Positions 8,925-48,529 of a stretch of DNA of 64,000 nt are shown piece after piece. Numbering within the stretch: the stretch's first letter is position 1; each line of letters opens with the position of its first letter. The stretch lies in assembly GCA_000004985.1 (NCBI GenBank), contig GG738865.1. One strand, written 5' to 3'. Under the pieces are notes generated by a model. The model did not search any database and had not been told where the DNA came from. It was given only the letters and a program-made list of their open reading frames with translations. Source of the stretch: Naegleria gruberi. Lineage: Eukaryota. The position numbers and the translations under genes were made by a program.

Positions 8925-11900
8925 ATGGAATATGAAAAAGCGGAACAAGCTAGGAAAAAGAAATATGCATCGTGTTTGCAATTAGTCAAACATATTTCTG
9001 GTTTACCAACAATTTCGGATGAGGATTTAAAAAACCCTGATTGGAGTTGTGAAAATGTAGAGCTGGTATTGTTGGAAAATGGGTTATTGGTAAAGGAAAA
9101 TGCAGTGAGTACGGTAGTGCAATCTGCATTTGTTGATGATAAATTTGTGGATCAGTTTATTGACTTTATGATTGATGAGTGGAAGGATCCAACACCTTCG
9201 GAATTAATTTATACATTGGTTTTATTTAAATCCAACAAAATTTTGAATAATTTATTGAAGAGAAGACACATAATGAGGATTTGTTATTTTGTCTTGACTT
9301 GCGAAACAACCCTAGATAATATTCAATTAGCTCTCCAACAATTTTTGGAGATGTATTACAGCATTTCTATCAATGTACTTTGTTCAATTCTTCATGATGA
9401 GCTCAGAAGGTTCAAAGATTTTAAACGTAATAATTATGATTTTGCAATAGAAATGAAATGTTTGGAATTAATTCTAGTGTTGCGAGTGAAATATCCAAGT
9501 GAGAGTATTGATTCCACACTTCAATCAATCCTCGTTTATTTATTAAGATTGGGCAATCAACAAGTTTCTAAAAAACTTTGCACTAGAGCTGTTGTGGCTC
9601 TGAAAGAAATGAAAGCCAAATCAAAAGAATCGTTCGGCGCTGTAAAAAAAGCTTTTGAAACAAAGTCAATTTCAACTAAAGTGGCTGGTACCCTTGCTGA
9701 ATATTGCCAAATAACGAATACAGAGAAATATTTGGAATCAAAGATTGATGAAAAGAAGGAGCTAGGAGAAAAGGCTATTGGAACTGGTACTGATGTTGAG
9801 GATTTTATTCAAGACATTGATGTAGATCCATCTATTTATTCTATTGATGAAATGAAAAAGCATTTGGATGCTACCATTCTCAAAAATGCAACTCCCTATA
9901 TCCACTCCCAATTCATCAAGAAGCACTATGGTACTATACACCACCAAGAAGTTGAGGAGGAAAAGGAATTTCAATATTTGGCCAAAGCTATTATTCGAGT
10001 ATGTTCATGTCTAATTTTTTACTTTTTAATAACACAGTTAATTTGAAACTAACAGTTCAGAAATTATGGCACTAGAAAGATGGCACTTCTTTCCAATAAG
10101 ATGATGTACGACAATATTGATACAAGTGATTTGAAGGATTTCTCAACCCAGACTTTCAAAAGAAACCAATCATCTGACTATTTTAATTATCTAGTTCAAG
10201 ATCTTGCACCAATAATGGAATATCTAAATAGAGAGAAAATGTCACTCGGATATGATGCCATGTACATTCTTGGTGTTTGTTGTGAATATAGAGGAATGGT
10301 TGTGGAAAAGTTTTCACACAATTCATGGTGCATCAAACCAATTTATACTTATCTTATTGATAGTGGTATCTTTCAAAGAATTGAGGAGATTATTTTGAAA
10401 CATCTGAAAGGTCCACCAAGAGAACATGAAGATGATCGTATTGTCAGATTACAATACATTTGTGAAGCAATACGACTGGCTTCTGAACTATTTAATTCAA
10501 TGAAGAATAATAGAGAAATTAGCAGAGTTTCTCACATTTTGGAAACTTCTAAATTCTTTGAATACTTAATTTATTGCTTGTATGAATTTAGGGAAGAGGA
10601 AATTATGCTCAAGACCATTGAACCTTGTTTTGCATATGCTGCAGAATGTAGACAGGAAGTAGGTATATGTCTCATCTATAAAAAGTACCTGCTGGCCCAA
10701 ATCACCCAAATGTTTAACTATGCCATCCTCCTGCCTGAAACAACAAGTGATGAAAAGGTTGATTTAACCACAACCATGACTGTAATTATTAGAACACTGT
10801 ATGACATTGCCAAACCAACTGCATCTAAGGTCAATGGATCCCTTTTAAAGGGTCAGAGAAGATTACTAGCACCAATGCTTGGTTGTGGAATTTTTTCCAA
10901 ATTGGCTTCATTTCTCAAAGAAAAACAAGGAATGCTAACAGGATTTGCTGTCTCAGCCATGAACGATGACAGAGATCCACGATACCACTGGATTGCAGAA
11001 CTCGTTACTATCATGTCTTATTATTCGAGATATCCACCAATGAGAAAATGCTTTTATGAAAACAATTATGAAATTTTCACAATTTTACTATCCAAAGTAA
11101 TATTCTCACTTAATGAGGTTTTCAAGAGCAAATCTAAAAATCAGAATAGAAAGCTTCACTTCCCTAATGTTTCTGGCTCTTCCTTCCTTAATGGGTTGTC
11201 TCTTGTGAATCGTTTGTTGTGGGACCGTGAGACTAGGAAATTCATGAGCGCAAATGAAAAGAACAGATCATCTGTTAATGGATCTACTAAGCTGGAAGAC
11301 TTATGTTTTTATTGGATTAATTATTTTGTACAGAGAGTGAAAAATTCAGAAACACTAACTCAAAGTGATTTACTTGTTTGGGGAAGATCCTATTTCCTCT
11401 TGTCTAGTTTAATGATAGAAGAAGATTTCCGTTCATACCTTGCAACCAATACTCAGATTGTGGAATTACTCATGGATACAATAAGTATCAAAGCTAGGCG
11501 ATTAACTACTGATGTAAAGAACTCTTCCTGTAAATGCATAATGATATTATTGAAGGAACCAAAGGCAGCTGAAAAAATGGAGGTTGACAAGATTTTGAAA
11601 TTTGTCAACTCTGAATTCAAAAACGAAACAACAACACGACTCATCGCTCCGGAGAATGAAATTGAAACAAATGTACTCCTAGGTCTGTTGTATGATATGT
11701 TTGAAAGTCGAATTGGAGAGGATGCAAAACAACTCATCAAGGCCAAATATCCTCTATTAGCTCCTCAAATCAAGGAAATTGGCAAGTGCAACACTTGTGG
11801 AAAAGGCTCTAGTTCAGAATCATCCTTAAAGCGTTGCTCTGCCTGTAATTCTGTAAGATATTGCAGTGTTGGTATGTTATTTTTATTGTATTTAATCTTC

Positions 11901-18432: not shown

Positions 18433-18813
18433 ACTAATTGATAAAATACTTAATGTAAATAGAATTGGTTAGTTTTCTTTAATTTAATATTTGTATTAAC
18501 ATTTCCTTCAGGAAAAAGTTAACGAATACTTTGAAAAGGGCCGATTTATTCCAAGAATTTTATTTGCCATTTTTAGAAATTGGAAAACCTTAAGTTGACC
18601 GTAATTTGAAAACTTTTGAAACATTGGAAATTCCATGTTTTATTATTGTAATATGCTCCTTAAATTCCTTGTTAAGGTCTTACTGTAATCCTCAAACATT
18701 CAAACAGTACGATTCACAATTCCCAACAAACATTCTCTTCATTGTCCAATGTTGAACGGCCTTGCGGTTTGCACACACTTTTCTTGAAGAAAAAAATTAA
18801 CAACAAACTCAAC

Positions 18814-21800
18814 ATGAGGAGCAACCTTAATTGGCTTAATTGCTTACTGTTAACAGCCTTTGTGTTAGCGCTCTTTTCCTTTCACACGAAGGGTACTGTG
18901 CTAGAGTATTGCGATACAATGACAAATATTCCACCTCTTTGCTCGAATCAACAAAATCTAGGACATGCTGTTGATATAGAGTTGCCAGGTGGATATAGTG
19001 AAGTAGGAATGAATGTTACAACACAATTGGTTGGCTTTATCAATGACCAAAATGAAGATTTGTATCACTTGGTGAATGCTCCTACTTTGGTTGATAAATA
19101 CATTTCAAAACTTAAGAGGGTAAGCAAGAATGGTGCAGAGATTTGGACATTAGACATTCAAAGTGATTGCAGCACAAGTGCATCAGTAGTTAGTCAAACT
19201 CTTTCCTTTGCTTCGGATGGTACTATTGTGTTATCTGGTTGGATTATTACAAAGGAAAGAGCATGTTTTAGGGGTACAAAACTATCCTCAAAAACCTCTC
19301 AAAACAATAGAAAAGTTCCATTCATTGCCTTCGTATCATCAACTGGCTATGTGATTTCTGTAATTTCCTTAGAAAATGACTTCCCTGATGCATCAATTTC
19401 ACATGTTGATTTAGACCATTCCGACTCGAACAAACTCTATCTTATCATCAGAATGGATTCAAGATTATTGATTGCATGTTACAATGACGGTAGATTAATG
19501 TGGAACAATGTAATATCCTCTTGTGCAGATCCAAGTAAATGTCAGGCTGCAGGTTTGAGTTATTCACCATTTGGGAAAATTTTGGTCACACTTTATGAAA
19601 GTGATGGAACTAATTTCCAATTCGCTGCTCAAGGTTTCAATTTTGTTTCACACAAATCTGGAATCTACATAGCGACATTTAGCTCAGATGATGGTTTGTT
19701 CTCTTCTATTGATATGGTGTTCCACAGTACCTCAGTTAACATGGGAGCACCAAAGACAGTTTTGGATCGTTTAGGAAAATTACACCTACTGATTGCATGT
19801 GAGGCTAATTGCTACATAAGCGGTTCCATTGCAAATCCAGGTGTCTTCTTGTTGAGATATTACAATGGAGCTGTTGAAAAATTAAACAGATTCATTTCCC
19901 TTATATTATCCAAAATTAAGCTTCAAAGCCTTGCATTAGACAGAGATCTATCTATCTATGCAATTATTAATGGATTGACATCATTTTCAATAATTGATGA
20001 CACCGATGGCAGAGTATCAAATTTTCTTGATATTGGAGTTCTTTGTAAATTCAGATACTCAGATGGAAAGATTTTATGGTTACGAAAAATAGCTGACGAT
20101 CCAACTCTGGATTACTACCACGTAAGTCCTTCCAGCATAATGGTTAATAAGAAGGCCACTGTTGATGAAATTATTCCAACCATGTTCACATATCTCAGAG
20201 ATGGCACAAGAAGAACAGCCTGGATTGAATCATACACTGCTCGTTACGATACAACTGAATCATCATCTGCTAGAATAGGAGGATCTGGAGGATCAACAAC
20301 ACACACAACAAGTGACAAAGTTACTGCAATTCTTTTTGGAACCACTTCAGATTATGTTAGGGATATTGGATTTGAATTCAAATCTGTACCTGCTTTCCAA
20401 GGCGGGTTAGGAATTAGATATGCCATTGACAGTGATGAATATTTCACCTCGATTGACTATTGTGTTGGTGGTAATTCATATACCACAGTAGAATATATCA
20501 AATTCAACACAAACAAGAAGTCTTTTTCAAATGGTAAATGTCGTAGTTCCCTTCAAACTGAAAGCGTTCCAAAAGGTAAAGAACTTGTTGGTTTCACAGT
20601 CAACATAGGTATATATCTGGATTCAATCAAGTTTTACTATCGTAGCCCATATATTTGCATGACTGGCACAGAAGGGGACAAGTGTGACACCAATGTATGC
20701 TATGGTATTTCTTCCAAGTCCGCACTGAAATGTAGTGGTAAGGGTAATTGCGTTGGGCCTAATACTTGCTCATGTTATTTTGGATATTTTGGGTCTAATT
20801 GTGAACAGAAAACTACATGTTTTGGTATTGACTTTGATTCAAAAACAGTTTGTTCTGGAAATGGAAATTGTTATGGGCCGAATACTTGTCGGTGTAATGG
20901 TAGATATACTGGAAACCAATGTCAATACGCAACATGTAATGGAATAATTCAATCGGATAGCAAGGTGTGTTCAGGTCATGGATCATGTATTAAGGAAGAT
21001 ACATGTTCCTGCCAAGAGGGATATTCTGGTCCGTCATGTAGCACATATTCGTGTTCAGGAATTTTAAATTCTGATTCGAAAGCTTGTTCAACACATGGAG
21101 TTTGTTCAAGTTTAAATAATTGCACATGCTTAGTTGGTTATTTTGGTAGTACTTGTAACGAATTCGAGTGTGGGGGTATCAATGCCAAGTCTAATCTTAC
21201 CTGCACAGGAAGAGGAATTTGTTCTTCTTCAAATAATTGTAAATGTTTAGCCCCTAATTCTTATGGAGACAATTGTGAATCATGTAAGGAAGGGTATTAT
21301 GGAAGCAAATGTGAAAAATGGAATTGTAATGGTATTGAGAACACGTCGCCTGATGTATGTGGTGGTAGAGGACAATGTGTCGCTCCAAATCAATGTAAAT
21401 GTACTTCAACTGCCACTGGTTCATTTTGTGAACAATGTGTTACAGGTTATTTTGGACTTAAGTGCGGTAATTGGACATGTAATGGTATTGAAAACACAGC
21501 CACAAATGTTTGTAACCACAGAGGAAGTTGTATTGCATATGATAATTGTCAATGTTCTTCAAGATCTTATGGTTCCAGTTGTGAATCATGTGTTGGATTG
21601 TTTACTGGTGCTCTCTGTTCTGAATGTTCTGGACACCTCGAAGGAGATGAAGAATGTTTAAATTATGCTGTCACCGATCCAGAATACTATGCTTTTACTG
21701 ATGATAATAGGTTAGAATTTCTTCAATTTATAGTAATGTCAACAGGTATTGTGAATTCTACCGATTATGCTTGTAGCAAGTTGTTTACTAATCTAGAGAA

Positions 21801-24800
21801 TGAAATTGGTATAGGTTTGGAATGTACTGTTAGGAATGGCACAGTTTCTCCTTCTAATACTGTCAATAGAGCTTATTTAATTACTGTTAAAACTTTTCAA
21901 GGTACAATGAGTCCAAGTAAACCAATACATTTCAACATCTTTTGGGCAAATCCACAAAAAAAACCATCCTATACCACCCTTAACATTAGTGTAAAAGAGT
22001 TTTATACAAAGAATTCGATTGGTTTAGATTTGTATGCTGAGCAATATAGGGTGTAAACAGATGTTATGACACACAATTACGTTTACATTACTCGCAACCA
22101 GAACACCGATACACTTTCACATCCATTAAATGGAACATTACAAATTCAAATAATCTCCAAACTGTTCCTAAAATTGTGCAAGCTGTAGAAACTGCCAAAA
22201 ACAGTCTTGACTTGACTATTCCATTCGTACCAGAAATGCTCACTAATGAAACTCTAATTGTAACAGTGACTTTTGTATCTGCTTTTGGTCAACAAGCCGT
22301 AAAATCATTCCCACTTAAATTAAGTAAACCTTATCCTAAACCAAGTTCTACCATTCCTACTAGAACAGTTACCTTCCTTAGTTCAGAAGATGAGACTATT
22401 CCTCTTCGAGAATTCTATGAAAATCCTGAATGTTTAGATCAAGGAATCGTTCCATCCTTTTCCCTGTATCGCGGTTACTATGATGATTATTTTACTATGG
22501 ATCGTACTAGTTCACATTCGGTTATTCTTACCTCAGATTTAATTATTGTTAAATCTTTAACGTTTACAAATGAGGAAATACTGCCCATATGGTTTGGCAA
22601 TTCAGCAAGAATCCGGTTAGATGTTCGTTACCTTCCACCTATTCCAAAAATAGTCGAATCGATTGTTTATTATAACTTTATACAGCCAAGCATTACCATT
22701 GCTTGTAGGAGTCCTTATGGAGATTCATATTTTTACAGCAGCATCAGATATTCGTTGTTAGAGGATTCTTCCAAAATAGCGAATGGATACGCTTCCTCTG
22801 CAACTGTTCCAGTTAGAGTACTGAGTGCTGCTAATCCAGACTCTGCAGTATCGAGTGCTCTTTTCGAATTGACTTGTAGTGGGCCAAATAGGCTTGGAGA
22901 TACTTCCATTTCAAAATATGTGACATTTATTAAAGAACAACCTGCAAGTAGTACACCTCACCAGGATATTGTAAAATTCTTGCAGTTTCATTGAAGACTC
23001 CAAATGGAAGAAGTACAATACCTTATTCAGAAAATGATCAAACCTATAATCTTGAAGTGGTATCTTCAAGTAATGATTGCAAGTTAAGAGTTATCTTATC
23101 CAATCCAATCAGCTATAATTCTGTTGAATTATTATCAACTACACTTTCCAATACCATCAGCACTGTACCAGTAGTATTCAAACAGAGCACTCTCTCAAAG
23201 TTTACAATGGCAAAGAGTTCTACAACAATGTCTTTATATGCCGCTAATGATCTCTCTGTACAAGGTCAAAGTATTGAACTTCAAGGCAAATTTTTTACAA
23301 TAATTGACATGTGTTCAATTTCTCCATCCACCATTGAAATTGGAATAACCAAAGCAACACTTTCATGTACATCTGACCTTGTTACCACATCGACAAAGAT
23401 TGAGCTCTATCATGATGGACTCTTGGTTGGTAAATCTGCCAGTTTCCCAATTGACTTTGTAACATCAAGGTCAGGACAATCTTTTAAGGTTGTAATTTAT
23501 GACACACTTACTGGTGGTAAAGCTAGTGAAGATATACTCTTGTCAAAAGCCATTACGTTCAGTACTAAATCATTACTTACAAGTAGTTTCGTATCAAAAA
23601 TTGCAAGTCAAATGGCAATCATTTCACAATCGAATAGTGCCAGTTTTAAAGACATTTCCAGTAATAATAATTATATTGTTTCAATGATTAATAATATTGG
23701 AATAGCTACAGAGATTGTGCAAAAGGAAATCGCTTCATTGACTCCAAAAGCTTTGGATATGTCAATTACGGCAATTTCGAAAGACATGAAAGAGTCAAGT
23801 CCATCTCTAGGCTCGTTCTCAACCATGGTCAACCAGATAAAGGACTTGTCCAATCCTGAATATTTAACTGATTCAAATGTTGAGAAAACTACTCAAATTG
23901 TAAACGAATTTGTTTCATATACTCAAAGATTGACAAACTGGGATGATGGGATTTCTGCTTCGCTTTCTAATATTGTAACAAACATTGCTCCAAAGATATC
24001 TGAAACCACTACAATGTCCATGATTTCTAAAATTGCGTTTTCTACTATTTCCAAAAGTTCACAATTCACATTCACAACCACAAACTTTTTCCCAGATAAG
24101 AAACCTTCCAATTTGATTATTGTGAATGCAGTAAAGTCCAGTTACGTCTCCATGAACTCACTTTCGATTACATCCGAATCCAAAGTCCCACTAGTCTCAT
24201 TCCAATTGTCCAAACACAAGACAACAGCTCAAGCCAATGAAGAAATCATAGTTTCACACTCAGTTTTCAAATATCCATCATCAAAGCGATCCATTACAAC
24301 ACCTAAAAGAGATTTCATTTCCCAATTGAGTATTTCTTCAAAAAACATTTTGGAAGGAACTGCTTCATTCAATATTCCTCTCCCATCGTATGCTTCACCA
24401 ATTAGTCCTCTAATCAAACAAACTTTCAGATGTATTACTGTATACGACATGAAGGATTTCCAAGTTGAAACGTATTGTAAATACGCCAGCAATTCCAAAC
24501 AATATTTATCTGAATTTCAATCTGATTCAACAACTGTTGTAACATGTTCATGCGATTTGAATTATTTATCAAAGCAATCTCAATTTTCAATGATTGGTGT
24601 AACAGCTGAGTATTTGGAAGATGATTCTGCCTATAGAGCAGACCAAGATGCAAAGGTAGCAGCTGGTGTATCTGTTGCACTCATATTCGTTATTCTTTTT
24701 ATTGTTGGAATAGTTCTATTGGGTGTTGGAATTTCAGTCTTTTTGTATTTTAGAAAGAAGAAACAAATGCCACCTGCCCAATTCCCTGCCAATTCACAAC

Positions 24801-25009
24801 CATCGATTCAGTACACTACACAACCCTCAAGTAGCACCATCAATACCTCTACTCCTGATTTATTGGTTGCCTATTCTGTAAATGCTGATTTTGAATTGGG
24901 AACTGTAAATGCTGGTCAGCATTGGTCAGTTCCAAATCAAATCCATTTAGGTGCTATGGATGGTATCGAAAATGTGACAGCACAAAATATTCAACCAACT
25001 TCAATTTAG
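18814..25009 (+). CDS. large type-I membrane glycoprotein with tandem EGF-like Cys-rich repeats (tenascin-like C-x-G-x-G-x-C...C-x-C repeats), Ser/Thr-rich stalk, one C-terminal TM helix and a short cytoplasmic tail; multi-exon, ~2000 aa
   Basis: The track shows three abutting ORFs in frames 1, 0 and 2 (18742..22056, 22176..22994, 22991..25009). Only the first has a signal peptide (ATG 18814, MRSNLNWLNCLLLTAFVLALFSF). Only the last has a TM (VAAGVSVALIFVILFIVGIVLLGVGISVFLYF) plus tail. The last two begin at GTG/TTG rather than ATG. Junction 2 is explained by a 38-nt intron 22948..22985 (GTAGTA...TTGCAG). Junction 1 has two candidate introns: 22032..22204 (173 nt, GTATGC...AACAG) or 22022..22101 (80 nt, GTTTAG...ACCAG). 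It may instead be a real frameshift. Confidence 0.55.
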
Positions 25010-25065: not shown

Positions 25066-27198
25066 TTAATGTAAATCTAAACTTTTAGCCATTGAAATTA
25101 TTTGATCCAAATCATTTTCGAAATCCTTCACAAGTTCTTGAGGATTGGCAGTTAAGGTATCAGCACAAACACCAAGAACAAGCTTTCCATTATGGCTCGA
25201 CACAGCAAAAGATAATCCAACAGAAGCAGGGGAAGGTGCAAACACAACTAAATTGGATACCTTGACATTCTCCACTGTTAATTGAGTTGAGGATCCAACA
25301 ATATTTGTGAAAACTGCAGAAACCCAATTGGAAACAAACTTGTAAATTGTAGAAACTGTGCTCTTTTGTAAAATATTAACTAGTCTACAAGATTGATATG
25401 TAAAAAATGGTTCTGGAAGTCTCTTGCTCTTATCCATAACCTTCTTGATTTGTAGGAGTCTAGACTCGGGATTTCTAGAGAGATTCTTCAAATTAAGCGG
25501 CACAAGCATAAATCCAAACTTGTTGGATAAGTTGTTAAACTCTTCTTCCTCAAGTCTAATATTTACAGGAACAGATAAGGTAACCTTCATATTGCTTTCA
25601 TTATTGGATCTTCTCTCAGTAAATCTCAATAAGGCTCCAGAAAGGGAATTCAAAACAATATCATTCACTGTAGAGTTGTTACAGATCTTCTTAGCCACCA
25701 GTTTGACATCTGCAATATCAAAAGCCCTTGTCCACGAAACTTGCTTTTCTGTTGAAACTTTTGTTTTGAAAAGACTCTTATCACCTCCTCGAATAATCAT
25801 AGAAATCCACTTGAGTGCAACCATAAGTAAGCCCCATAACAGCCACATAAATGCTATCATTCTAATGATATAGCCAATAACAGGAACGTGTTCCAATGAA
25901 CGAATAGTCTTGGATATGAGTTTCCCCTTTCTTTCATGAAGTTCTTCCTTGAAATGCTCTTCTCCCTGGTCACAGAATTGAGAAAAGAACATTACTAAAG
26001 ATGATCCATCTCCAATAGCATGATGAATTCTAAATAATAACAGATATCCCATGGCAGGACAATTATCAATCACAATACACTCCCACAATGGCTTGGAAAA
26101 ATCAAAGGGTTCACAAACCAATTTACCTAGCAGCTCTCTAACAAGCTCGTGTTCTTCTGTTTCAGAATATTCGCGATTGCCACTCTTTAGTACTCTCATG
26201 TATCTAATATGTTGTTCAATGTCAATAGATCCTTGATCACAAAAAGTATTGTAATCATTGCTAACAGTAGACCTGAATCTTGCATATTGTTGCACAACCC
26301 TCTTATCCAATCGACTTCTCAAATCTTCATGTGAAATAGGACTCTCCAATGTTACAAAGGCACAACAAATGTTGGAATTTGTTGGTTCTTGGGTGATTAA
26401 TGTCATTTTGGTTACATGTGACAAATCTTTGAAAGACGTCTTTCTAATTTCAGTGTTAATACTCAGCTTTTCCAAAACCCTTTTTGCTACTGCATTTCTT
26501 TCTTCAATATATTTGGTTTCCTCCTTTCTTTGTTTGATTGGTTCCTTGAATTCTACTTGGGATGGTGATTCTTGATGATGATTAACAAGGGTGGCAGTTA
26601 CTACAGCTGTACTAACAGAATCCATCTCAATTGAAGAAGAAATTAATAGATTTTCTTTTTCAGGATTTGTTTCCTCTGCAAGAGTTGCCTCTTCTGTGCT
26701 ATTATTGGTTATTTCTTGTGTGGTAGTAATTACTAATTCTTCTTTGATCACATTTTCTTCAATTGGTTTTTCATTCAAGTTTGAGCTTTCTTCCTTGTTG
26801 GGGTTTTGTTCAAAATTGGATTGTTCTGAAATAGGTTCTTGAGTAATTGTGGTCTGATTATCGATCATAGAATGCTCTTCATCATTAGTTATTTTACTTT
26901 CCTCTCCTCCATTGATCACAATTTCAATCGATTGAGCAGATTCGACAATGGTTTCTTCATTTCTTGATTGACTTGGTTCTTCTTCCTTCTTGTGATTATT
27001 TCCATTCATTGCAATAGTAGTAGAAGAATTTTCTGCAACATCCTCGTGATGGTGATGATGATGAGTGGCACTATCAATTTCTTGCATTAAATTCATTCCA
27101 GAAGGCGACAAGAATTCATCCAAACTCAAAGTCTGACTCTTTCTCTTACTTGCTGAGGAAGGAGTTGTTTGATTCTTCTTTTTCTTTTGTTTGGTCAT
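25066..27198 (-). CDS. wax-ester synthase / acyl-CoA:diacylglycerol acyltransferase (WS/DGAT, WSD1-like) with a long low-complexity N-terminal extension
   Basis: 710 aa. The C-terminal ~380 aa carries the WS/DGAT catalytic motif HHxxxDG (FRIHHAIGDGSSLVMFF) and a condensation-domain-like fold with an internal TM-like helix. The N-terminal ~330 aa is Ser/Thr/Glu/Asn-rich and contains a His6 run. ATG at 27198. Confidence 0.75.
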   Translation of the reverse strand: MTKQKKKKNQTTPSSASKRKSQTLSLDEFLSPSGMNLMQEIDSATHHHHHHEDVAENSSTTIAMNGNNHKKEEEPSQSRNEETIVESAQSIEIVINGGEESKITNDEEHSMIDNQTTITQEPISEQSNFEQNPNKEESSNLNEKPIEENVIKEELVITTTQEITNNSTEEATLAEETNPEKENLLISSSIEMDSVSTAVVTATLVNHHQESPSQVEFKEPIKQRKEETKYIEERNAVAKRVLEKLSINTEIRKTSFKDLSHVTKMTLITQEPTNSNICCAFVTLESPISHEDLRSRLDKRVVQQYARFRSTVSNDYNTFCDQGSIDIEQHIRYMRVLKSGNREYSETEEHELVRELLGKLVCEPFDFSKPLWECIVIDNCPAMGYLLLFRIHHAIGDGSSLVMFFSQFCDQGEEHFKEELHERKGKLISKTIRSLEHVPVIGYIIRMIAFMWLLWGLLMVALKWISMIIRGGDKSLFKTKVSTEKQVSWTRAFDIADVKLVAKKICNNSTVNDIVLNSLSGALLRFTERRSNNESNMKVTLSVPVNIRLEEEEFNNLSNKFGFMLVPLNLKNLSRNPESRLLQIKKVMDKSKRLPEPFFTYQSCRLVNILQKSTVSTIYKFVSNWVSAVFTNIVGSSTQLTVENVKVSNLVVFAPSPASVGLSFAVSSHNGKLVLGVCADTLTANPQELVKDFENDLDQIISMAKSLDLH

Positions 27199-30878: not shown

Positions 30879-31438
30879 AATGATGATGATGAAACGATCA
30901 TATTTTGTCTCTTATTAGAGAATGAAGATGACTTATTGGCGGCAATAGAATTGGCTGCAACTACACTGGTTGATAAAGCAGCACCAACATTTTTACGGAT
31001 CGATTTTGATTGCTTCAAGCTGTTACGAAGGAGCATTTTTTTTGTAAGTTTTGGCTCAGATTTTCATCACAAACAATAAACAATGCAAAATGGTAATGAC
31101 AAACATTAATTGTTTGTTGATGAAGATAATATTCATGAAATGGAAAGAAGTAATGATACGGACTGTGGAATGTAAACTGCAACGATGATGAGCATGTTGT
31201 TCTTTTGCGATTATCGAGTAGTAACAGGAGTGGGACGGTATTCCTTACTTTTGAAAGTCCATTGTGCGGACAGTGGACATAGAAACAGTTTTGCTGTAAT
31301 TGAATTTTGTTTTGAGTGAAAGTTCCATTGAAAAACTAGTTGGCCAAAACTCCAATTGATGAAAATAGCTTACATTCAGCTGGTGTTCGACTCATCACTC
31401 GAATTAAAACATTTGGCGCCAAAACAAATTCAAAAAAA
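30879..31438. promoter_or_regulatory. divergent intergenic region between MCC-alpha (minus) and the OB-fold gene (plus); may also contain the MCC-alpha presequence exon
   Basis: See the MCC-alpha evidence. The motif aaaaaaaATG precedes the start at 31439. Confidence 0.3.
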
Positions 31439-33729
31439 ATGGATGAAATAAATAACTCTCCCGTTATTGCAAATGAAGACGTGTTGGAAAAGTTAGAAAC
31501 ACAAGATACTGATGATGATCATAGCGAACAGCAGGTACAATTATCTACCTTGATACGATCTGGTGTTAATAATTTGGATAGAAATATAAAGATTACATGT
31601 TATGTTCTTCGGATCAAAAGATGTGAGTTTAGGAAATTATCAAATTGATGCTAACAAGAATAATAGTTCATATTGATTCACATTTTCTTAATGTTTCCGA
31701 TGTTTTGATTACACCAACTGTCAATAGTCAGGGTTTTGTGAGTGACAATCATATTTCTGCTGCTCAATTGGTGCAACCAAAAGATGGATATGAAATAACA
31801 ATTACCGATCGTGAAACTGTTATAGTTGTCATTCTATCACCTTTATTGAATGAATTAATAACTCAATCAAAAATTAGAGAAAACACTAAAATAATGATAA
31901 CTAAATATAAAGTGCTAATCGATGAGAAGGTGAAAGGAAAGCAGAAGGGAGTTGTTTTCATTCAATCTTTGGAAATTATTTCACAAAACAAAAAACCACG
32001 AGTTTCAATTGAAGATTTTTCACAAGTTCTCGATGAAGCAAGAGGAAATATTTGCCCACTACTGTCAGGAAGAGGATTTTACATGCCACTAGAGGATGAG
32101 GATAATTTTGATTTTGAGGTATACAGTGGTACTGTACCAGAGGTAGTAAGTAGAATAATTGAATACTTTATTTTAACACATGAAAGACTCTGGTAGAGCC
32201 ATTCGAGAATGTGTCACAATTGGCAGATATTATTGGAAGTGGCGTAAAGAAACCATTCATTGCTAGAATTTGGAAAAAGTCAAAGATAAGATACTTTGGA
32301 AAAACAAATGAGGAGAAACAATATCCAATGTTCTACGTATTATTAATTACAGACAAATCGACACCAAAAGGTGTACCAGTCACCATTTGGAATGAATTAG
32401 CATTGAAAACTTATGGAGATTTAAGTGTTGGCGATATTATTTCAGCAGAGGAATATAGAGTGAAAAATTTCCACGATTCTGGAGTTTTCTCAACCAAATT
32501 CAAAACTGAAATTTCTATCAACCCAACAAAATCACGAGTAATTCCAATTCAAAAGTTGGACGATAGAATTGCTAGCTTTGCTCCAATAGAATTTCCACTC
32601 ACAAATATTAACACTATTATTCAATCTAAACTCGATGGAACAGTACTGAATATCATGGGCATTGTAGCAAATATTGGCCCTTACAGAAGAGAAAAGAGCC
32701 AACATCAATTCTCTCAGTATAGATATGTCACATTAATGGATCCTTCTAGCATTTCTGCGATGTCTGTAAAATTATATACTAATTCAAGAAAGCACATTTT
32801 GGATACTGTTCAAATTGGTCAAGTTGTGCTTTTGACTGATGTTTCTGCACATACATTCCTAACCTGTATGGACAAGGCTCAAACTACAACTAGTAATTTA
32901 GAAAGCTCATTCATTACTCATGTATTTACAGAATCGCAATTATCTACTCTAAATTTTGCCTCTAATATCAAGGAAATTACTGGATACTTTGAGGATTTGA
33001 ATGAATGGAGAGAAAATAATAAGGACTTTTTCAATACTTGCCTTTCTGTGCCAACAACATTTGGACCTTCGAGGCAATATCCTATTCCAGACTTTCAAGA
33101 TTTTGAATCATTCAAAGCAAGATATGTCAACATTCCTTGGATTTATTACAAGGAATTATTTGAGATTCCTACTACTCTTCAACGTTTTCAAAGTACTAAT
33201 GTAATTGTCAAGGCAGTGGTGAAGGACATAACCATTGAAAATAACCTTAAAAGAAAGAGATCTCAAGAGGATGAGAGTAAGATGAAAAAGTCCAGCGATG
33301 CCAGCTCGACCAGAAGTGAAGAAAATTCCTATGAAGACGAAATTGACACTGCCTATACAATTTTAAGCCTAGAAACAGAGGTAAGTTTCAATTCAATACA
33401 ATACAAATTGGAATATGATATTAATTTAACAACCTGCAAAGGGAGTAAATGGAGATAGAAGACTGGAAATGTTAGTACCAATTTGGAATAATGAATTTTC
33501 GCATCCTGACTGTTATAATCCAACTTTTTTGGATGTAATAGATGAGCATTGCGAACAACTTTTCAAATTAAAAAGTCAAACCCATTACTTTAAGAATATG
33601 AATAGATTAATAGAGTATTATAAAAAAGAGATTGTGGACCAGACATACATTTTTGGAGTGGAAGTTCTTTGCAAAGAATATTCTGAATGCAAATATTATG
33701 TTACTCACATGTTTAAGGATGAGCCATAG
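31439..33729 (+). CDS. multi-exon gene encoding a ~714-aa protein with OB-fold-like segments (possible ssDNA-binding, RPA/POT1/RMI1-like); function unknown
   Basis: Exons are 31439..31622, 31667..32145 (or ..32142), 32187..33380 and 33442..33729. Introns are 31623..31666 (44 nt, GTGAGT...CTAAC...TAATAG), 32146..32186 (41 nt, GTAAGT...GAAAG) and 33381..33441 (61 nt, GTAAGT...CAAAG). These join four track ORFs in three frames. OB-like blocks include KPFIARIWKKSKIRYFGK...YPMFYVLLITDKSTPKGVPVTIWNELA. The C-terminal exon is Cys/His-containing. Confidence 0.55.
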
Positions 33730-35812: not shown

Positions 35813-37122
35813 ATGAATAGTCGGGGGATAAAATCGAGCGGACTAGTAGGGAATGGTTCTACTTCTGCTCTTGTATTATTAATTATCAATGTGATGATGC
35901 TGATAGTAGCGATGAATAATTTCCTAATAATGACGGAAGCAAAATTTGAATTGATTGGACATAGAGGAGCTCCAAATTTGAGACCTGAACATACGTATGA
36001 ATCCTATTTATTGGCTTTTCAACAAGATGCTGATTATATTGAATTTGATGTAATGCCATCTAAAGATGGAGTCCTTATGGTGACTCATAGTTTTGAATTA
36101 ACTGGTAGGTACCTGATTGAAAATCTTTGAGTGTGCTAACTGTTTCTTCTATAGAAATTAGTAATGTTGCCTCTGTGAGCAAATTTTCGGATAGAAAGAA
36201 AACTAAAGTTGTCGATAAGAAATCATATTCTGGATGGTTTATTGAGGATTTTACTGCTTCTGAATTACAGGAATTGAGATTGAGAGAAAGATATCCACAA
36301 GCTAGAACTACCAAGTTTGATGACATCTTTGTCATGCCAACTCTTGAAACAGCACTTGACTATATAATTGCTATTACTCCAAATAATTCTTCTAAAATCA
36401 AGCTCTATATCGAAACAAAGCATCCAACATATTTTGCATCTGCTTTGAATGTCGATGTTAACCAATTGCTTGTTAATGTTTTGGAGAAGTACCATTATCT
36501 TGAATATACCATGTTCCAATCATTTGAAATTTCAAGTATGACTAGTATTCGTACAATTTTGTCCAACAAGAATATTCAACCATTGGGATATGTGATGCTT
36601 TTAGTGGCTAATGGTTCTCAAATTGATAATGGAAGAAATTTTGATGAGTACCTGACTGAGGAAGGTATTGATACAGCAAAGAGTGCTGGTATCACTGGTT
36701 TCGGACCAGCTTGGAAGATGGTTACTAAACCATGGGTTGAATCAGTTCACAAGAGAAATTTAATCATTCACCCATATACTTACAGACCTGAGGAATACTT
36801 TTTGAAACAAACCCCATATACCACCTTCTCTGATTTTATTAAGAGTGCTTTGGAACTTGGTGTTGATGGAGTTTTCACTGAGGACATTGATCAAACCAGA
36901 GCCATTGTTCTTGCCTATGAATCCAATTCAGTTGTGACTGTCTTGCTAATCGTTGCCTTTGTATTCGTTGGAGTTTTATTCATTGTCATTGCTGCCTCTG
37001 TTTTATCAGCTTACCTTTGCAAGAGAAAGACCAATCCATCATCATCAGCCACCCAAAACAGAGAAGAACGTGCAGGTCTTGCCCAACAATCCAATTCCTA
37101 TTCATATAATCAAGATGAATAA
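35813..37122 (+). CDS. glycerophosphodiester phosphodiesterase (GDPD family), membrane-anchored; 2 exons
   Basis: Exons are 35813..36104 and 36155..37122. The intron 36105..36154 (50 nt, GTAGGT...CTAAC...TATAG) joins track ORFs 35813..36130 and 36127..37122. N-terminal signal anchor. GDPD catalytic block ELIGHRGAPNLRPEHTYESYLLAFQQDADYIEFDV. C-terminal TM VVTVLLIVAFVFVGVLFIVIAASVL plus a short tail. 419 aa. Confidence 0.85.
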
Positions 37123-39293: not shown

Positions 39294-40591
39294 TTATTCT
39301 TCAGCAGTTTCGAGTTTTTGAATCAACTTTTCCAGAGTTTCCTTCTTCTTTGTGATTGCTTTTACAATGGCAGTTGTGTCATTTGGATCCAAAGCATCAG
39401 CAAGTTTCTTTTCCAATTCTTCAATTTCATTTGATTCTCTGTCCGCTATTGATTCAATTTCTTCCATACTGGCACGATTAATATCGTCATCTGTGAGGAA
39501 ACTTGTTGAAGCAAGATGTTTGCGAAGTTCTTCAGAAATTTGTTGAACTGGTTCAACAACTGCTGCAATTGGTTGAACAGCAGGTACTGATGATTCAACA
39601 ACACTTGTAGCTGTTGGTTGAGTAGTGATAGGAGTAGGTTCTGGTTGCTTCTTTGATTTTCTCTGTTGTTGAGATTGTTATTAAATCATGAAAATGGGAA
39701 TTTGATACTTACACCTCTCTTCTTCTTGGCAGGAGTACCATTTTGTGATTGTGAACTAGTGGCAACAGTGCTAGTAGTTGTGGATTTACTTGGAGTATTT
39801 GGTGGAGTTTCAATAATTACCGAATCAGATGAAACAGTTGTTGCTTTAGGTGAGTGAGCAATAGAATCAGCAACCATTGTGGATGATGACCTCTTCTTTC
39901 CTCGTCCTCTTCCTCTTCCAGAACTGCCTCTCTTTGATTCTTTAGTTTGTTGAGTTGAAATATGTTCCACATTTGATGATGATGAGTGTACTGCATGTTT
40001 AACACGATGATGTACATAATTATCATTTTCACTTTCAGTTTCACTTGCAAGAGAAAAGTCAAATTGATTATTTTTATCCTCAATTTCTCTTTCAATTCTA
40101 TTGAAAAAGATGATGTTAACAAAAAGTCTAATCAGATAAAAAGACATACATATTATAAACTCCAGATTGTGCAACTTGTTGAATTTTAACATCCACTTCA
40201 GAACGAAGTAATTCTGTTGAATGTCTACTCGTGGAAATGTGTAACATTTGTTGAAGTTGGGTAAGAACTTTTAACTTTTCCCAAGTAATTTCACCTTGTG
40301 CACGGAATGCACTAACCACACTACTGTATGCAGTTGTTTCTATTCAATAATGCACGTAAATATCATCCATACTTGTATCCAATAATACCTACCATATTGT
40401 CTTAAACGTTTAACGAGTTGTTTTTCAGATGACGTTATCAGAGAATCCGTATCAATCATCATGTTATCACTTCCATTTGTTGATTGTTGTTGGCTTAGAT
40501 TTGTTGTGTGATCGGTGACCAAATTATTCGATGCTGATGACGATGAAGCAGTGTTATTCACGCCCGACAACGCTTCTTGTTGTTGGCTCAT
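39294..40591 (-). CDS. ENT (EMSY N-terminal)-domain protein; 4 exons, ~380 aa
   Basis: Exons on the minus strand are 40591..40393, 40339..40150, 40097..39713 and 39662..39294. Introns are 53, 52 and 50 nt (GTAGGT/GTATGT/GTAAGT donors, AG acceptors). The spliced ENT domain ...KQLVKRLRQYETTAYSSVVSAFRAQGEITWEKLKVLTQLQQMLHISTSRHSTELLRSEV matches EMSY ...LELEAYSSVISALRAQGDLTKEKK...LSISTERH.... Ser/Thr-rich middle with RGRGRGKKR. C-terminal coiled-coil. Confidence 0.7.
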
Positions 40592-45409: not shown

Positions 45410-47455
45410 ATGCCTCCACCTCCTCCTTCAACATCTTCATCATCAACACCAAGAGGAAAGGCAATGCGATCTGCTTTTCTACCACCCGAAACCCCATTAT
45501 CAACCAAAATTAGAAAACCAATCAGGGCCACTCCTTCTTCTTCAACTTCCTCATCGACCAATGGCACTAAGCTACAAGAACAAGAACAGCTACAAGACCA
45601 ATGTATTAAAGTGTACATTAGAATTCGTCCGAACGATGATCATGACCAATTACAAATTGAATTTCTCAACAATTCTTCAATTCAAGTCACGTGTAAAAAT
45701 CAAGAAAAGGCAGATACACCAAAAGTATTCCTATTTGATCAGGTTTTGGATGAAAATGTTTCTCAGCAACAAGTTTTTGATTTGATTGGTGTTCCAGTTG
45801 TTGAAGAACTTCTTCAGGGGTTCAATGCTTCCATTTTAGGTTATGGACATACAGGATCTGGTAAAACATTTACAATGGGAACTAATCTTCATGAGATTGC
45901 AGATTCCTTTGAGAGTGGCAATTTGCCTGCTGCTTGTGGTTTATTGCCACGAATTGTTGAAAGGTTGCTAAACAGGAAGAAAGTGGACGAACAATTAAGC
46001 TGCTCCTTATTTGAAATTTATAATGGAGGAGTTTATGATTTATTTGGAGAGGCCAGCAAAAAGTGTAAGGTCAAGTATTCAAACGGTGTGGATGTTGTGA
46101 CCAATGCTAAAAAGAAGCTTATTCATTCACTGTCTGATCTTTCTTCCATTTCGTCTGGTTTAAAAAGGAGACATCAAAGTGCAACTGGACAAAATCTATC
46201 CTCATCAAGATCACACTGCATCTTTAGATTGTTTATCACAACTGCAGACAATACTGAAAGATGCCTAAACATGGTTGACTTGGCTGGATCTGAACGTCAA
46301 AAAACTGCCAACATTCACGCTGATAAAATGTTACTAGATGAAGCAAATTACATTAATACTTCATTGACAGTTTTGAAAAGATGCATTGAAGCAGTCTATA
46401 ATAATCAATCCAATACTGATAAGAAGACACTAGTTCCATACAGGGAAGATAATCTTGCCTTATTGTTGCATTCAACTTTGGAAGGAAATTCAAAAACTTT
46501 CTTTATTGGAAATATTGGAACTGCAAGTGAATCGATATCAACTTTGAATTATGCACAAACGGCAAGAAAGATTAAAAAGATGACTAGCAAGTTGAGTTCA
46601 ATGTTGAAGAAGAAATCAGGAGGATTGTTTGAAGAGGAAATTGAAAAGTTAAAGAAAGAGTTGGAAGAAACTAAGGGTAAATTGGATGAGGAAAGAGATA
46701 GCAAGACCAAACATATTGAAGAACTCTCACAGAAAATTGCATTATTAGAAACTAAACAACAGGAAGCTAATGAAATTCTCAAACAATCGAATACCATTAT
46801 AGAAGAGATGCAAATCAGAGACGATTCTCTGAAAGAAATTTGCTCAGAAAAAGAAGAAATTATTTCAAATCTCTTTGAAGAATTGTCAAAAGCCAGAAAA
46901 GAAAGCGAGCTCTTGGAGAAGGACAATTCAACATTGAAGAGTGAAAATTCAATTCTTTTGGAAGCAATTGAAAATCAATGTGAAATCATTAGACAACGAG
47001 ATAAGGAACATGATTCAGCTTTCCAAAATTTGAAAGAGCAACTAGACGAATATCAAAAACAGTCATCCTCAAAGACTCTTACAATTCAAACTCTGCGAGA
47101 TGAATTGAAAAAAAAGGACAAAATCATACAGAGAAAATCTTCAACTACTGCAGAACAACTTTATCAGACCATTGAAAATTTACTTAAAACAATTGAAGAT
47201 CAAAAGAAGACAATTCACATGTTTTTGAATGGAACGATGGAAGTTGTGGATATTGATAAGGAAGAAGCTCATGATGGTAATTCATGTGATAGTGATGATG
47301 ATGATGAGAAGGTGATGTCTGATTCTCCAGTTGTGAAATCAAACAAACGAAAGGTAATTTCTCCACTCCAAAATATTGTCTATGAATCAACAGATGAAAA
47401 TAATGAACCAGAATGTAAATATTCAAAATCTGATTTATTAGAATATTTAAAATAA
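45410..47455 (+). CDS. kinesin-like protein (N-terminal motor + coiled-coil stalk)
   Basis: 681 aa. P-loop GYGHTGSGKTFTM, switch motifs SSRSH and LVDLAGSER, neck, then a long coiled-coil (LKKELEETKGKLDEE...). The N-terminus is Ser/Pro-rich. Confidence 0.85.
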   Translation: MPPPPPSTSSSSTPRGKAMRSAFLPPETPLSTKIRKPIRATPSSSTSSSTNGTKLQEQEQLQDQCIKVYIRIRPNDDHDQLQIEFLNNSSIQVTCKNQEKADTPKVFLFDQVLDENVSQQQVFDLIGVPVVEELLQGFNASILGYGHTGSGKTFTMGTNLHEIADSFESGNLPAACGLLPRIVERLLNRKKVDEQLSCSLFEIYNGGVYDLFGEASKKCKVKYSNGVDVVTNAKKKLIHSLSDLSSISSGLKRRHQSATGQNLSSSRSHCIFRLFITTADNTERCLNMVDLAGSERQKTANIHADKMLLDEANYINTSLTVLKRCIEAVYNNQSNTDKKTLVPYREDNLALLLHSTLEGNSKTFFIGNIGTASESISTLNYAQTARKIKKMTSKLSSMLKKKSGGLFEEEIEKLKKELEETKGKLDEERDSKTKHIEELSQKIALLETKQQEANEILKQSNTIIEEMQIRDDSLKEICSEKEEIISNLFEELSKARKESELLEKDNSTLKSENSILLEAIENQCEIIRQRDKEHDSAFQNLKEQLDEYQKQSSSKTLTIQTLRDELKKKDKIIQRKSSTTAEQLYQTIENLLKTIEDQKKTIHMFLNGTMEVVDIDKEEAHDGNSCDSDDDDEKVMSDSPVVKSNKRKVISPLQNIVYESTDENNEPECKYSKSDLLEYLK

Positions 47456-47458
47456 AAA

Positions 47459-48529
47459 ATGGGAAATAGTCAACCAAGTAGAAATTTCACAAAAAATCAA
47501 TTAACAACACCAGTTTCCATTCCGATATTGTTTCTTATCGGAGATAAATCAAGTGGAAAGACGCAAACTATTCTTTCATATAACCACAGTTTCGAATTAA
47601 ACAGACGAACCCGACATTTAATTATTGAACTTTCGCGATGCATTCTTGGTTATGAAGCTCATCAAATTTCCAAGATTGACGAAAAACATTACAAAAGCAT
47701 TGCAAAAAAGTTAAAAAAAACTTGGAATTCCAAAAAGGAAAATTCTTTAAAATTCAACGCTGAAAATTTTAAAAGAAATTTAAATTATTTTGAAATTTCA
47801 ATTGAAAAACTTTTGGAAATTCTTGAAAAAATTGTAAAGGACGAATTTAGTACTGAATTGACCAATTCAGAAATTCAAATTATTGAACAAGCTCAACTAT
47901 TAATTCATCCATTTGCTTATTTCCTGGAAAATTGGTCAATTGGAACACAAACTAATCAATTAGTTGAATTATGTGCAATTCCAAGATCGAAATTATCACT
48001 TGATTCAGAAACATTTTCATGGATGAAAGAAAGAGAAAATTCTGTCGTTTTGGTTTTCATTTCATTGATTGGATGGTTGGATGAAACAGAGTATAATTTT
48101 CACAATTTTGATGAGATTGGAAAGGTGCTTGGACACGTTTCGAATAAGAAATTCGAATTTGTTTTTACAAAACCAGATCTGTTGTGGAAAATTCTGGCAA
48201 AAGGAGTGAAATATAAACATCAGGTGAAAGATACAAGAGCAGAGTTATTGGATATGGAAACTAAATACGGATTCGATCGAATAGTTAGCTCAATAATTTC
48301 AAAATACGAAACTGAACTACTGGCAGAATGCAATGATGCACAGAAACCTTTCAACTATCACATAGCAAGAACCAATTCATTGGACGAAATCTCAAAAGTG
48401 ATTGAAAGTGCCACTTCTGAATTTTCTCAATTTATTTCACCATTTATTATTCGAAAGACTTTATTCCAACCAGCACATTCCAATCAATTATTCTATTCAG
48501 ATCTATTAATATTGTGCATCTACCCTTAA
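47459..48529 (+). CDS. divergent G-protein alpha-subunit-like protein (N-myristoylation motif, intact P-loop, degenerate switch II and NKxD)
   Basis: 356 aa, a typical G-alpha length. MGNSQ (MGxxxS) N-terminus. P-loop LFLIGDKSSGKTQTI, compared with G-alpha LLLLGAGESGKSTI. A helical-domain-sized insert follows. VVLVFISLIGWLDETEY...SNKKFEFVFTKPDLLWKIL aligns with G-alpha AIIFCVALSDYD...[30 protein letters not shown] replaces TCATDT. DVGGQ is absent. The start is 3 bp after the kinesin stop. Confidence 0.6.
   Translation: MGNSQPSRNFTKNQLTTPVSIPILFLIGDKSSGKTQTILSYNHSFELNRRTRHLIIELSRCILGYEAHQISKIDEKHYKSIAKKLKKTWNSKKENSLKFNAENFKRNLNYFEISIEKLLEILEKIVKDEFSTELTNSEIQIIEQAQLLIHPFAYFLENWSIGTQTNQLVELCAIPRSKLSLDSETFSWMKERENSVVLVFISLIGWLDETEYNFHNFDEIGKVLGHVSNKKFEFVFTKPDLLWKILAKGVKYKHQVKDTRAELLDMETKYGFDRIVSSIISKYETELLAECNDAQKPFNYHIARTNSLDEISKVIESATSEFSQFISPFIIRKTLFQPAHSNQLFYSDLLILCIYP

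Follow-up and report, generated by a model that had tools for sequence, protein, structure and literature searches.

Two one-base frame shifts divide a predicted lectin/EGF cell-surface protein gene of Naegleria gruberi into three annotated proteins

At the gene level, we found that NAEGRDRAFT_67006, NAEGRDRAFT_67007 and NAEGRDRAFT_67008, listed in GenBank as separate predicted proteins of Naegleria gruberi, have a single-gene origin and are pieces of one gene predicted to encode a lectin/EGF cell-surface protein of ~2,065 residues. The breaks between the pieces are two single-base frame shifts, not introns, and our result is therefore an annotation correction. Taken at face value, one gene with two one-base shifts and no intron would be a pseudogene or null allele of very recent origin, a reading to which we give about even chances. 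The gene lies in a stretch of 64,000 nucleotides (the window). A preliminary description had likened the protein to dictyostelid ones, which was the wrong taxon: the DNA is N. gruberi nuclear DNA, and the three pieces are 100% identical to XP_002677684/5/6.

The three open reading frames abut on the forward strand, at the coordinates first proposed for them. ORF1 (frame 0) is open from 18676 and runs from the ATG at 18814 to 22056, ORF2 (frame 2, 315 codons) spans 22050-22994, and ORF3 (frame 1, 686 codons) spans 22952-25009. At 35% GC, open frames of such length (315 and 686 codons) lie far outside chance expectation, and codon-usage log-odds preferred the assigned frame in each of the three pieces. 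The insertion of one base per junction gave a 2,065-aa ORF with a terminal stop only. The annotated models cover less: NAEGRDRAFT_67006 starts at the ATG at 18919, downstream of the ORF1 ATG, and NAEGRDRAFT_67007 covers only the ATG 22236-22994 portion of the frame-2 segment (22236-22991 matches XP_002677685 exactly).

Two intact, uncharacterized N. gruberi predicted proteins, NAEGRDRAFT_73856 (XP_002671087, 2,122 aa; hereafter P0003) and NAEGRDRAFT_74706 (XP_002670243, 2,003 aa; P0004), are colinear with the window protein over their full length, at 35 and 26% identity, respectively. Both run across all three ORFs, which bears out the original proposal of one coherent type-I membrane protein of ~2000 aa. 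By tblastn, P0003 residues 1-1087 aligned to 18919-22002 (frame +1), residues 1112-1328 to 22053-22721 (frame +3), and residues 1430-2086 to 22970-24856 (frame +2). In a full HMMER scan, the extracellular segment of ORF3 (22970-24655) matched only P0003 (E 4.7e-74) and P0004 (E 1.3e-9).

Each piece contains an internal ATG-to-stop ORF that was accepted as a gene model, as three independent genes would. However, the frames leave no intergenic space and overlap by 7 nt (ORF1/ORF2) and 43 nt (ORF2/ORF3), the middle piece lacks both a signal peptide and a transmembrane (TM) helix, the last one has only the TM helix, and both paralogues hold all three parts in one chain. Moreover, paralogue homology starts 5' of the first ATG in both ORF2 (22236; by 180 nt) and ORF3, the starts of the 67007 and 67008 models, and therefore neither is a complete independent gene. 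We consider three independent genes effectively refuted as an evolutionary description, and the GenBank arrangement itself extremely improbable.

For the N-terminal half, the start codon and a predicted signal peptide, MRSNLNWLNCLLLTAFVLALFSFHTK, occupy 18814-18891, with a hydropathy peak at residues 5-25. Cys33, upstream of the annotated Met36 of NAEGRDRAFT_67006, is conserved in P0004, which likewise has an N-terminal signal-like segment. Then follows a region of ~460 residues (18892-20274), all-beta in a low-confidence AF2 model (pLDDT 38.5), for which the Pfam scan returned no family. Its top Foldseek matches were all beta-propellers, weak ones (E of at least 2e-3, TM-score ~0.2), a hint that the fold is possibly propeller-like. 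Next is a jacalin-like lectin domain (Pfam PF01419; residues 488-608, 20275-20637), common to both paralogues, which scored 41.2 bits against a cut-off of 22 and covered profile positions 4-136 of 136. A profile search of the PDB matched the jacalin-type lectins horcolin and agglutinin. The likeness to jacalin-related lectins (horcolin, Helianthus agglutinin) lies in one domain over the Pfam threshold, whereas here this domain is a single module within a giant membrane protein.

The lectin domain is followed by seven tandem EGF-like units of the tenascin/teneurin type (residues 613-948, 20650-21657), with Pfam EGF_2 (PF07974) matching seven stretches with regular cysteine spacing at 69.8 bits against a gathering cut-off of 22.1. 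A motif scan gave five strict matches and a relaxed one; direct inspection of the sequence supplied the seventh unit (CSTHGVC). This count replaces the roughly 12 tandem repeats previously reported; the last three units carry an additional C-x2-C-x8-C element, and such elements may have been tallied separately. In the PDB search, the EGF profile matched the EGF region of teneurin-2/3, WIF-1 and a mastigoneme protein. Teneurin/tenascin arrays (EGF_2, EGF_TEN, EGF_Teneurin) are built from the same 6-8-Cys EGF unit, the only module that they have in common with the window protein. In contrast to teneurins, EGF_TEN scored 53.1 here, under its cut-off of 65, YD-shell, NHL and Tox-GHH were not found by Pfam, and the protein is predicted to be type I, whereas teneurins are type II.

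For the C-terminal half, the frame-1 extracellular segment (22970-24655) begins with a conserved cysteine pair, C1387 and C1423, and continues as an S/T-rich beta region, with a helical bundle predicted from ~23543 (AF2 secondary structure, low confidence). A juxtamembrane motif of four cysteines (C-x14-C-x22-C-x-C, 24431-24553; C1874, C1889, C1912 and C1914) is invariant in all three paralogues. The TM helix (residues 1949-1980 of the joined model, 24656-24751) reaches a Kyte-Doolittle maximum of 3.19 and precedes an RKKK basic stop-transfer and a cytoplasmic tail of ~85 residues, which completes the 24656-25009 segment with the stop codon at 25007-25009. Hydropathy agreed with the features first assigned to each frame: a signal peptide in ORF1, neither signal peptide nor TM helix in ORF2, and a TM helix plus tail, with no signal peptide, in ORF3. 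Thus joined, the predicted topology is type I, with an N-terminal signal peptide and a C-terminal TM helix.

The juxtamembrane region resembles the GAIN/GPS region of adhesion GPCRs and polycystin-1 in that it adjoins the membrane, is predicted to pass from a helical region to beta strands (AF2, low confidence), and bears a C...C...C-x-C pattern that does not vary among the three paralogues, but the likeness goes no further than resemblance. GPS and GAIN profiles gave no Pfam match at E <= 10 for ORF3 or the C-terminal halves of the paralogues, and the PDB profile search matched no GAIN protein. The HL|T/S cleavage triad is absent, the post-Cys residues being D-L-N-Y, D-L-S-S and L-L-T-S in the three paralogues. 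The AF2 model placed helices before strands at pLDDT 43.9, too poor for its Foldseek matches to have meaning. Moreover, one TM helix is predicted here, versus 7 in adhesion GPCRs and 11 in polycystin-1.

Both paralogues have the architecture of the window gene in the same order: all-beta N-terminus, jacalin domain, EGF_2 units (8-9 vs. 7 in the window gene), Cys-poor stalk, four-Cys motif, TM helix and tail. In the window gene, the stalk is long and S/T-rich and the tail short. Each paralogue is one uninterrupted annotated protein, whereas the window copy, split into three annotated proteins, has a continuous frame only after two one-base corrections. The best explanation is that the window gene belongs to a small N. 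gruberi-specific family of putative type-I surface glycoproteins of ~2,000 aa.

Junction 1 (frame 0 to 2 in the three-frame translation, 22047-22056) follows the end of the frame-0 segment (21658-22049), which in tblastn and the multiple alignment is homologous to the paralogues just 5' of the NRC/HKC motif. The shift is bracketed by a frame-2 TAG (22047-49) and a frame-0 TAA (22054-56). It lies at 22047-22053 and amounts to the loss of one base or the gain of two, with the best placement at 22047-22052, in or beside a GGG run. Homology is back in frame 2 within 1-3 codons (GV-NRC, 22050-22064), and the corrected model aligned to P0004 across the junction without a gap. A genuine frameshift, the third of the options initially offered, was the best-scoring model against both paralogues (BLOSUM62 scores of 235 for P0003 and 117 for P0004), ahead of every GT-AG model tried: 217/102 for 29 nt, 212/104 for 59 nt, 161/80 for 80 nt and 85/55 for 173 nt.

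Junction 2 (22949-22969) joins the frame-2 middle segment (22050-22969; P0003 alignment, codon log-odds of +9 to +34 bits in frame 2) to frame 1, again with one base missing or two extra. It lies 3' of a frame-1 TAG (22949-51) and 5' of a conserved Cys codon (22970), where homology returns at CK[IV]L; the second conserved Cys is 36 residues on. The sequence is non-repetitive, with no homopolymer longer than 2. A frameshift at or before 22969 scored 93-101 and 111-122 against the two paralogues (best 101 and 122), versus 80 and 96 for a 38-nt intron; it outscored all candidates except the removal of 17 nt, which tied (102/111).

As for introns, the GT...AG strings quoted in the preliminary description are present: 38 nt at 22948-22985 for junction 2, and 80 nt (22022-22101) or 173 nt (22032-22204) for junction 1. 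All three have a frame-restoring length of 2 mod 3 and give open joins, the genome uses very short introns, and the 38-nt candidate has a pyrimidine-rich 3' end, TTCTTGCAG. However, the seven introns verified at other sites in the window, our reference, measure 44-57 nt, with the donor GT[AG][AT]GT (G+5/T+6 in 7/7) and CTAAC-like branch sites, whereas the donors GTAGTA, GTTTAG and GTATGC lack G+5/T+6. A pattern scan for a canonical intron by local donor, branch site and size gave no candidate at either junction.

At junction 1, the 173- and 80-nt removals cost 150 and 74 BLOSUM62 units, respectively, and delete conserved frame-2 coding sequence: NRC..YSQPE..W, kept in both paralogues, falls inside the candidates, and codon bias within the 173-nt one favours frame 2 by +9 bits. 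Neither option is supported. The preliminary description had regarded junction 2 as fixed by the 38-nt intron. Removal of this candidate costs about 15-26 units against each paralogue, and its segment encodes in frame 1 the Cys-Lys-Ile-Leu kept at the same position in both paralogues, with its paired Cys. None of the seven verified introns is as short, and the candidate has no CTAAC-type branch site. Spliceosomal introns joining the pieces are thus very unlikely.

If the assembled DNA is correct, the frame could instead be recovered in the RNA or on the ribosome, by programmed -1 frameshifting, transcript slippage, insertion editing or ultra-short introns, and the full-length 2,065-aa protein would still be made from it after two such restorations. 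The same -1 correction is needed at both junctions, the downstream ORFs are undecayed, and both shift windows hold a tiny GTA...CAG string of length 2 mod 3, GTAAACAG (8 nt, 22053-22060) and GTAGTACACCTCACCAG (17 nt, 22948-22964), candidate non-canonical introns of which the longer one scores as well as a frameshift. However, 8-17 nt is far under the size of the verified introns, and neither shift window (22050-22053, 22952-22969) has a slippery X XXY YYZ heptamer or a homopolymer. No stable stimulatory RNA structure was found 3' of the junctions (z = -0.30 and +1.24 vs. shuffles). Elsewhere in the window, canonical introns or separate genes account for the abutting ORF pairs that we examined, and none of these needs such a mechanism. 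Insertional editing and programmed frameshifting are not known for nuclear genes of Heterolobosea, nor has the removal of such ultra-short elements been described in this group. We give recoding next to no weight.

The frame is thus disrupted relative to intact homologues, as in unitary or duplicated pseudogenes that carry frameshifts and that automated annotation divides into several gene models; these share with this gene the abutting ORFs, the internal-ATG models and a colinearity revealed by an intact paralogue. In contrast to them, the window gene is unusually pristine, with two indels, no nonsense mutation and conserved residues kept. Retention of the residues common to both intact paralogues was 0.49 and 0.55 downstream versus 0.52 and 0.56 upstream. 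We saw no relaxed constraint 3' of the first break and no stops in the 315 and 686 codons, and signal peptide, TM helix and every cysteine invariant in the family are preserved. Two base-calling errors in an intact gene would leave exactly this picture.

Since the downstream sequence is so pristine, an assembly artefact stays a live alternative. The gene would then be intact and would yield the full 2,065-aa membrane protein, with the shifts arising from single-base indel errors in the whole-genome Sanger assembly or from a consensus that joins heterozygous haplotypes into a chimera. Besides the absence of downstream decay and the preserved features, the best placement of junction 1 in or beside a GGG run and the N. 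gruberi NEG-M genome being a 2010 Sanger assembly favour this reading. Naegleria has been described as mainly heterozygous diploid (PMC9928731), which we also count for it. However, the two disruptions are confined to 920 nt of a single gene and none was seen at the other ORF pairs examined, so a local low-quality patch would be needed, and junction 2 lies in sequence free of repeats and of longer homopolymers. We regard an assembly error as a tenable but less favoured account, and real mutations as somewhat more probable than consensus errors.

If the gene is such a recent pseudogene or null allele, translation begun at the ATG at 18814 would end at the TAA at 22054. The largest possible product would be a secreted lectin/EGF fragment of 1,080 aa that lacks a membrane anchor, and the 985 downstream codons would be untranslated relics, still undecayed. 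The intact members of the family may act in carbohydrate-dependent surface recognition or adhesion.

At the gene level, we confirmed the earlier proposal that three abutting open reading frames on the + strand form a single surface-protein gene. The stop-to-stop frames were recovered as described, at 18676-22056 (ORF1, frame 0, first ATG 18814), 22050-22994 (ORF2, frame 2), and 22952-25009 (ORF3, frame 1), with overlaps of 7 and 43 nt. When used as query in a full HMMER scan of 1.84 billion representative proteins, ORF3 had three matches: its own model and two intact paralogues, P0003 (NAEGRDRAFT_73856, 2,122 aa; E 4.7e-74) and P0004 (NAEGRDRAFT_74706, 2,003 aa; E 1.3e-9). Homologues of this part were found in N. 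gruberi only, and it forms the C-terminus of both paralogues. A tblastn search of P0003 against the window ran colinearly through all three frames: residues 1-1087 at 18919-22002 (frame +1), 1112-1328 at 22053-22721 (frame +3), and 1430-2086 at 22970-24856 (frame +2). Homology already starts about 180 nt 5' of the first ATG in ORF2 and about 230 nt 5' of that in ORF3; therefore, neither piece is a complete independent gene. Adding one base per junction gives an open reading frame of 2,065 aa with a terminal stop only.

The DNA of the window is nuclear and comes from the heterolobosean amoeba Naegleria gruberi; its GC content of about 35% agrees with the 33-35% published for this species from a Sanger assembly (PMC8296547; PMC9928731). 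Public annotation places three consecutive "predicted proteins" here, each starting at an internal ATG and ending at the following stop, and all on a single 820,293-bp scaffold (NAEGRDRAFT_67006, 67007, and 67008). ORF1 is 100% identical to XP_002677684 (NAEGRDRAFT_67006, 1,045 aa), XP_002677685 (NAEGRDRAFT_67007, 252 aa) exactly matches 22236-22991, and XP_002677686 (NAEGRDRAFT_67008) is exactly the last 593 codons of ORF3. These entries (UniProt D2VDQ8, D2VDQ9, and D2VDR0) each represent a fragment of a single gene. The annotated start of NAEGRDRAFT_67006, ATG 18919, leaves out the signal peptide and C33, a cysteine kept in P0004. The absence of a signal peptide from XP_002677684 results from a wrongly chosen ATG; a better start is ATG 18814. 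The P0003 model starts at the equivalent internal methionine, also without a signal peptide, and is therefore probably 5'-truncated too.

At the junction between ORF1 and ORF2 (junction 1), the frame switch is held to a few bases by a frame-2 TAG (22047-49) and a frame-0 TAA (22054-56). Directly there begins the frame-2 reading GV-NRCYDTQLRLHYSQPEHRYTFTSIKWNIT, which aligns with GV..INRCFETKIKAYYSQPEFGTFQSLTWNLT in P0003 and gap-free with AV-HKCFSTTFKITKWSQYEKRETYRSINWTIV in P0004. We scored junction models locally with BLOSUM62 against P0003/P0004, taking every enumerated GT-AG join into account at both junctions. The preliminary description had left a 173-nt intron, an 80-nt intron, and a genuine frameshift as options for this junction. 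The frameshift fits best: a one-base correction at 22047-22052 scored 235/117, against 161/80 for the 80-nt intron and 85/55 for the 173-nt intron, and two shorter GT-AG joins reached 217/102 (29 nt) and 212/104 (59 nt). Inside the 173-nt candidate, the codon-usage log-odds were +9 bits for frame 2, versus -11 and -33.

The switch between ORF2 and ORF3 (junction 2) is confined between a frame-1 TAG (22949-51) and a Cys codon at 22970. From 22970, frame 1 reads CKILAVSLK...TIPY...Y.LEV...NC, the counterparts being CKVLGASLI...TIPF...Y.LEI...NC in P0003 and CKILSFRIK...LPF...Y.IEV...NC in P0004, with both cysteines of the conserved pair present in the match. The 38-nt intron suggested for this position (22948-22985) would remove the first of them, and it scored 80/96 against P0003/P0004. 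All one-base placements at or before 22969 scored 93-101/111-122, the best reaching 101 and 122.

Seven verified introns elsewhere in the window join abutting reading frames and offer a local calibration useful for re-annotating N. gruberi. On the + strand they lie at 9999-10055 (57 nt), 31623-31666 (44 nt), 32147-32196 (50 nt), 36105-36154 (50 nt, interrupting a Pfam GDPD domain between profile positions 47 and 50), and 50306-50352 (47 nt); on the - strand, at 39663-39712 (50 nt) and 51820-51872 (53 nt). All seven have a GT[AG][AT]GT donor with strict G+5/T+6 and a CTAAC/TTAAC/CTAAT-like branch site. Their length, 44-57 nt, is far below the published mean of 203 bp (PMC8296547). A pattern scan for introns of this donor and branch type found none at either junction; the candidate donors GTAGTA, GTTTAG, and GTATGC lack G+5/T+6, and no verified intron is as short as the 38-nt candidate. 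The 29- and 59-nt candidates at junction 1, and those of 32 and 17 nt at junction 2, retain the conserved motif downstream; they were rejected as too short, devoid of donor/branch consensus, or costing the conserved VTFI or EFYTKN. The introns proposed earlier lack support; each junction is a one-base frame shift.

Programmed frameshifting was ruled out, with neither a slippery site nor a structure: the two shift windows contain no X XXY YYZ heptamer or homopolymer longer than 3, and the 87 nt downstream fold no better than shuffled sequences (z = -0.30 and +1.24). Tiny GTA...CAG strings occur in both shift windows (22053-22060, 8 nt; 22948-22964, 17 nt), each with a length of 2 modulo 3, and removing the 17-nt string gives a fit to the paralogues equal to that of the frameshift. 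They probably reflect chance and are the sole hint of anything non-standard at the junctions.

At the protein level, the joined gene starts with a signal peptide, followed by an all-beta region of about 460 aa, a jacalin-like lectin domain, and seven tenascin/teneurin-type EGF units. Next comes an ectodomain of about 1,000 aa, poor in Cys and rich in S/T, in which a low-confidence model predicts a helical bundle and then beta strands. An invariant C-x14-C-x22-C-x-C motif adjoins the membrane, and a single TM helix and a tail of about 85 aa complete the protein. Hydropathy gave a signal-like N-terminus and a single strong TM helix (nt 24656-24751) with RKKK after it; the middle piece lacks hydrophobic segments. 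The Pfam hits were confined to ORF1, namely the jacalin-like domain (aa 488-608) and seven EGF_2 units; ORF2 and ORF3 gave none at E <= 10. The "around 12" repeats counted initially were an overcount; the last three of the seven units carry an extra C-x2-C-x8-C. P0003 and P0004 have the same Pfam content, jacalin plus EGF_2 (8-9 units), and a C-terminal TM helix. The juxtamembrane motif is reminiscent of a GPS motif but passes neither the Pfam nor the cleavage-site test. AF2 models, each built from a three-sequence alignment, reached pLDDT 44 for the juxtamembrane 378 aa and 38.5 for the N-terminal 466 aa; Foldseek searches against PDB gave meaningless matches for the former and only weak beta-propeller hints for the latter.

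Among the neighboring genes, a 710-aa ORF on the - strand (25066-27198) converges on the surface-protein gene, with 56 nt separating the two stop codons; it has a His6 run and an HHAIGDG motif and, judged by eye, may be wax-ester synthase/DGAT-like. A three-exon gene on the + strand (upstream exons 31340-32146, last exon in 32184-33455) matches Pfam RADX (RPA-related protein, E 5e-11) and DUF5088 in its last exon, RADX being an unexpected family in a heterolobosean. The ORF at 45410-47455 stops with TAA, and another (47459-48529) with a myristoylation-like N-terminus, MGNSQPS, opens 3 nt further on in the same frame; 47453-47461 marks either two extremely closely spaced genes or one gene that was mis-split.

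Regarding the origin of the shifts, we lean modestly towards a real, very recent disruption. Two indels fall within 920 nt of a single gene, no frame correction was required in any other abutting ORF pair that was examined in the window, and under neutral decay a truncating indel is expected to be followed by another one downstream. Somewhat less probable is an artefact, or a null allele in a heterozygote, for which several features speak: the 1,001 downstream codons contain no stop, every invariant cysteine is intact, and junction 1 has a GGG run. Moreover, residues conserved between the two intact paralogues are kept equally well on both sides of the break, at 0.49 and 0.55 downstream versus 0.52 and 0.56 upstream. 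Neither a junction-spanning alignment against metagenomes nor an exact DNA pattern across junction 1, with extra bases permitted, gave a match.

The main value of this result is the annotation correction, and the case is an ordinary annotation or pseudogene example in a lineage-specific family. If resequencing bears out the shifts, the locus represents a very recent gene death in that family; if not, it points to indel errors in the reference assembly. In its assembled form, the copy in the window could give rise to no more than a secreted lectin/EGF fragment of 1,080 aa. Together with its paralogues, the gene forms a small family encoding giant jacalin-EGF surface proteins; no relevant literature was found for the locus tags, for GAIN in Naegleria, or for jacalin and EGF in Naegleria. 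Judging from their domain content, the intact members would act in lectin-mediated surface recognition or adhesion, and the amoeba may use these giant proteins for carbohydrate-based recognition of prey or substrate.
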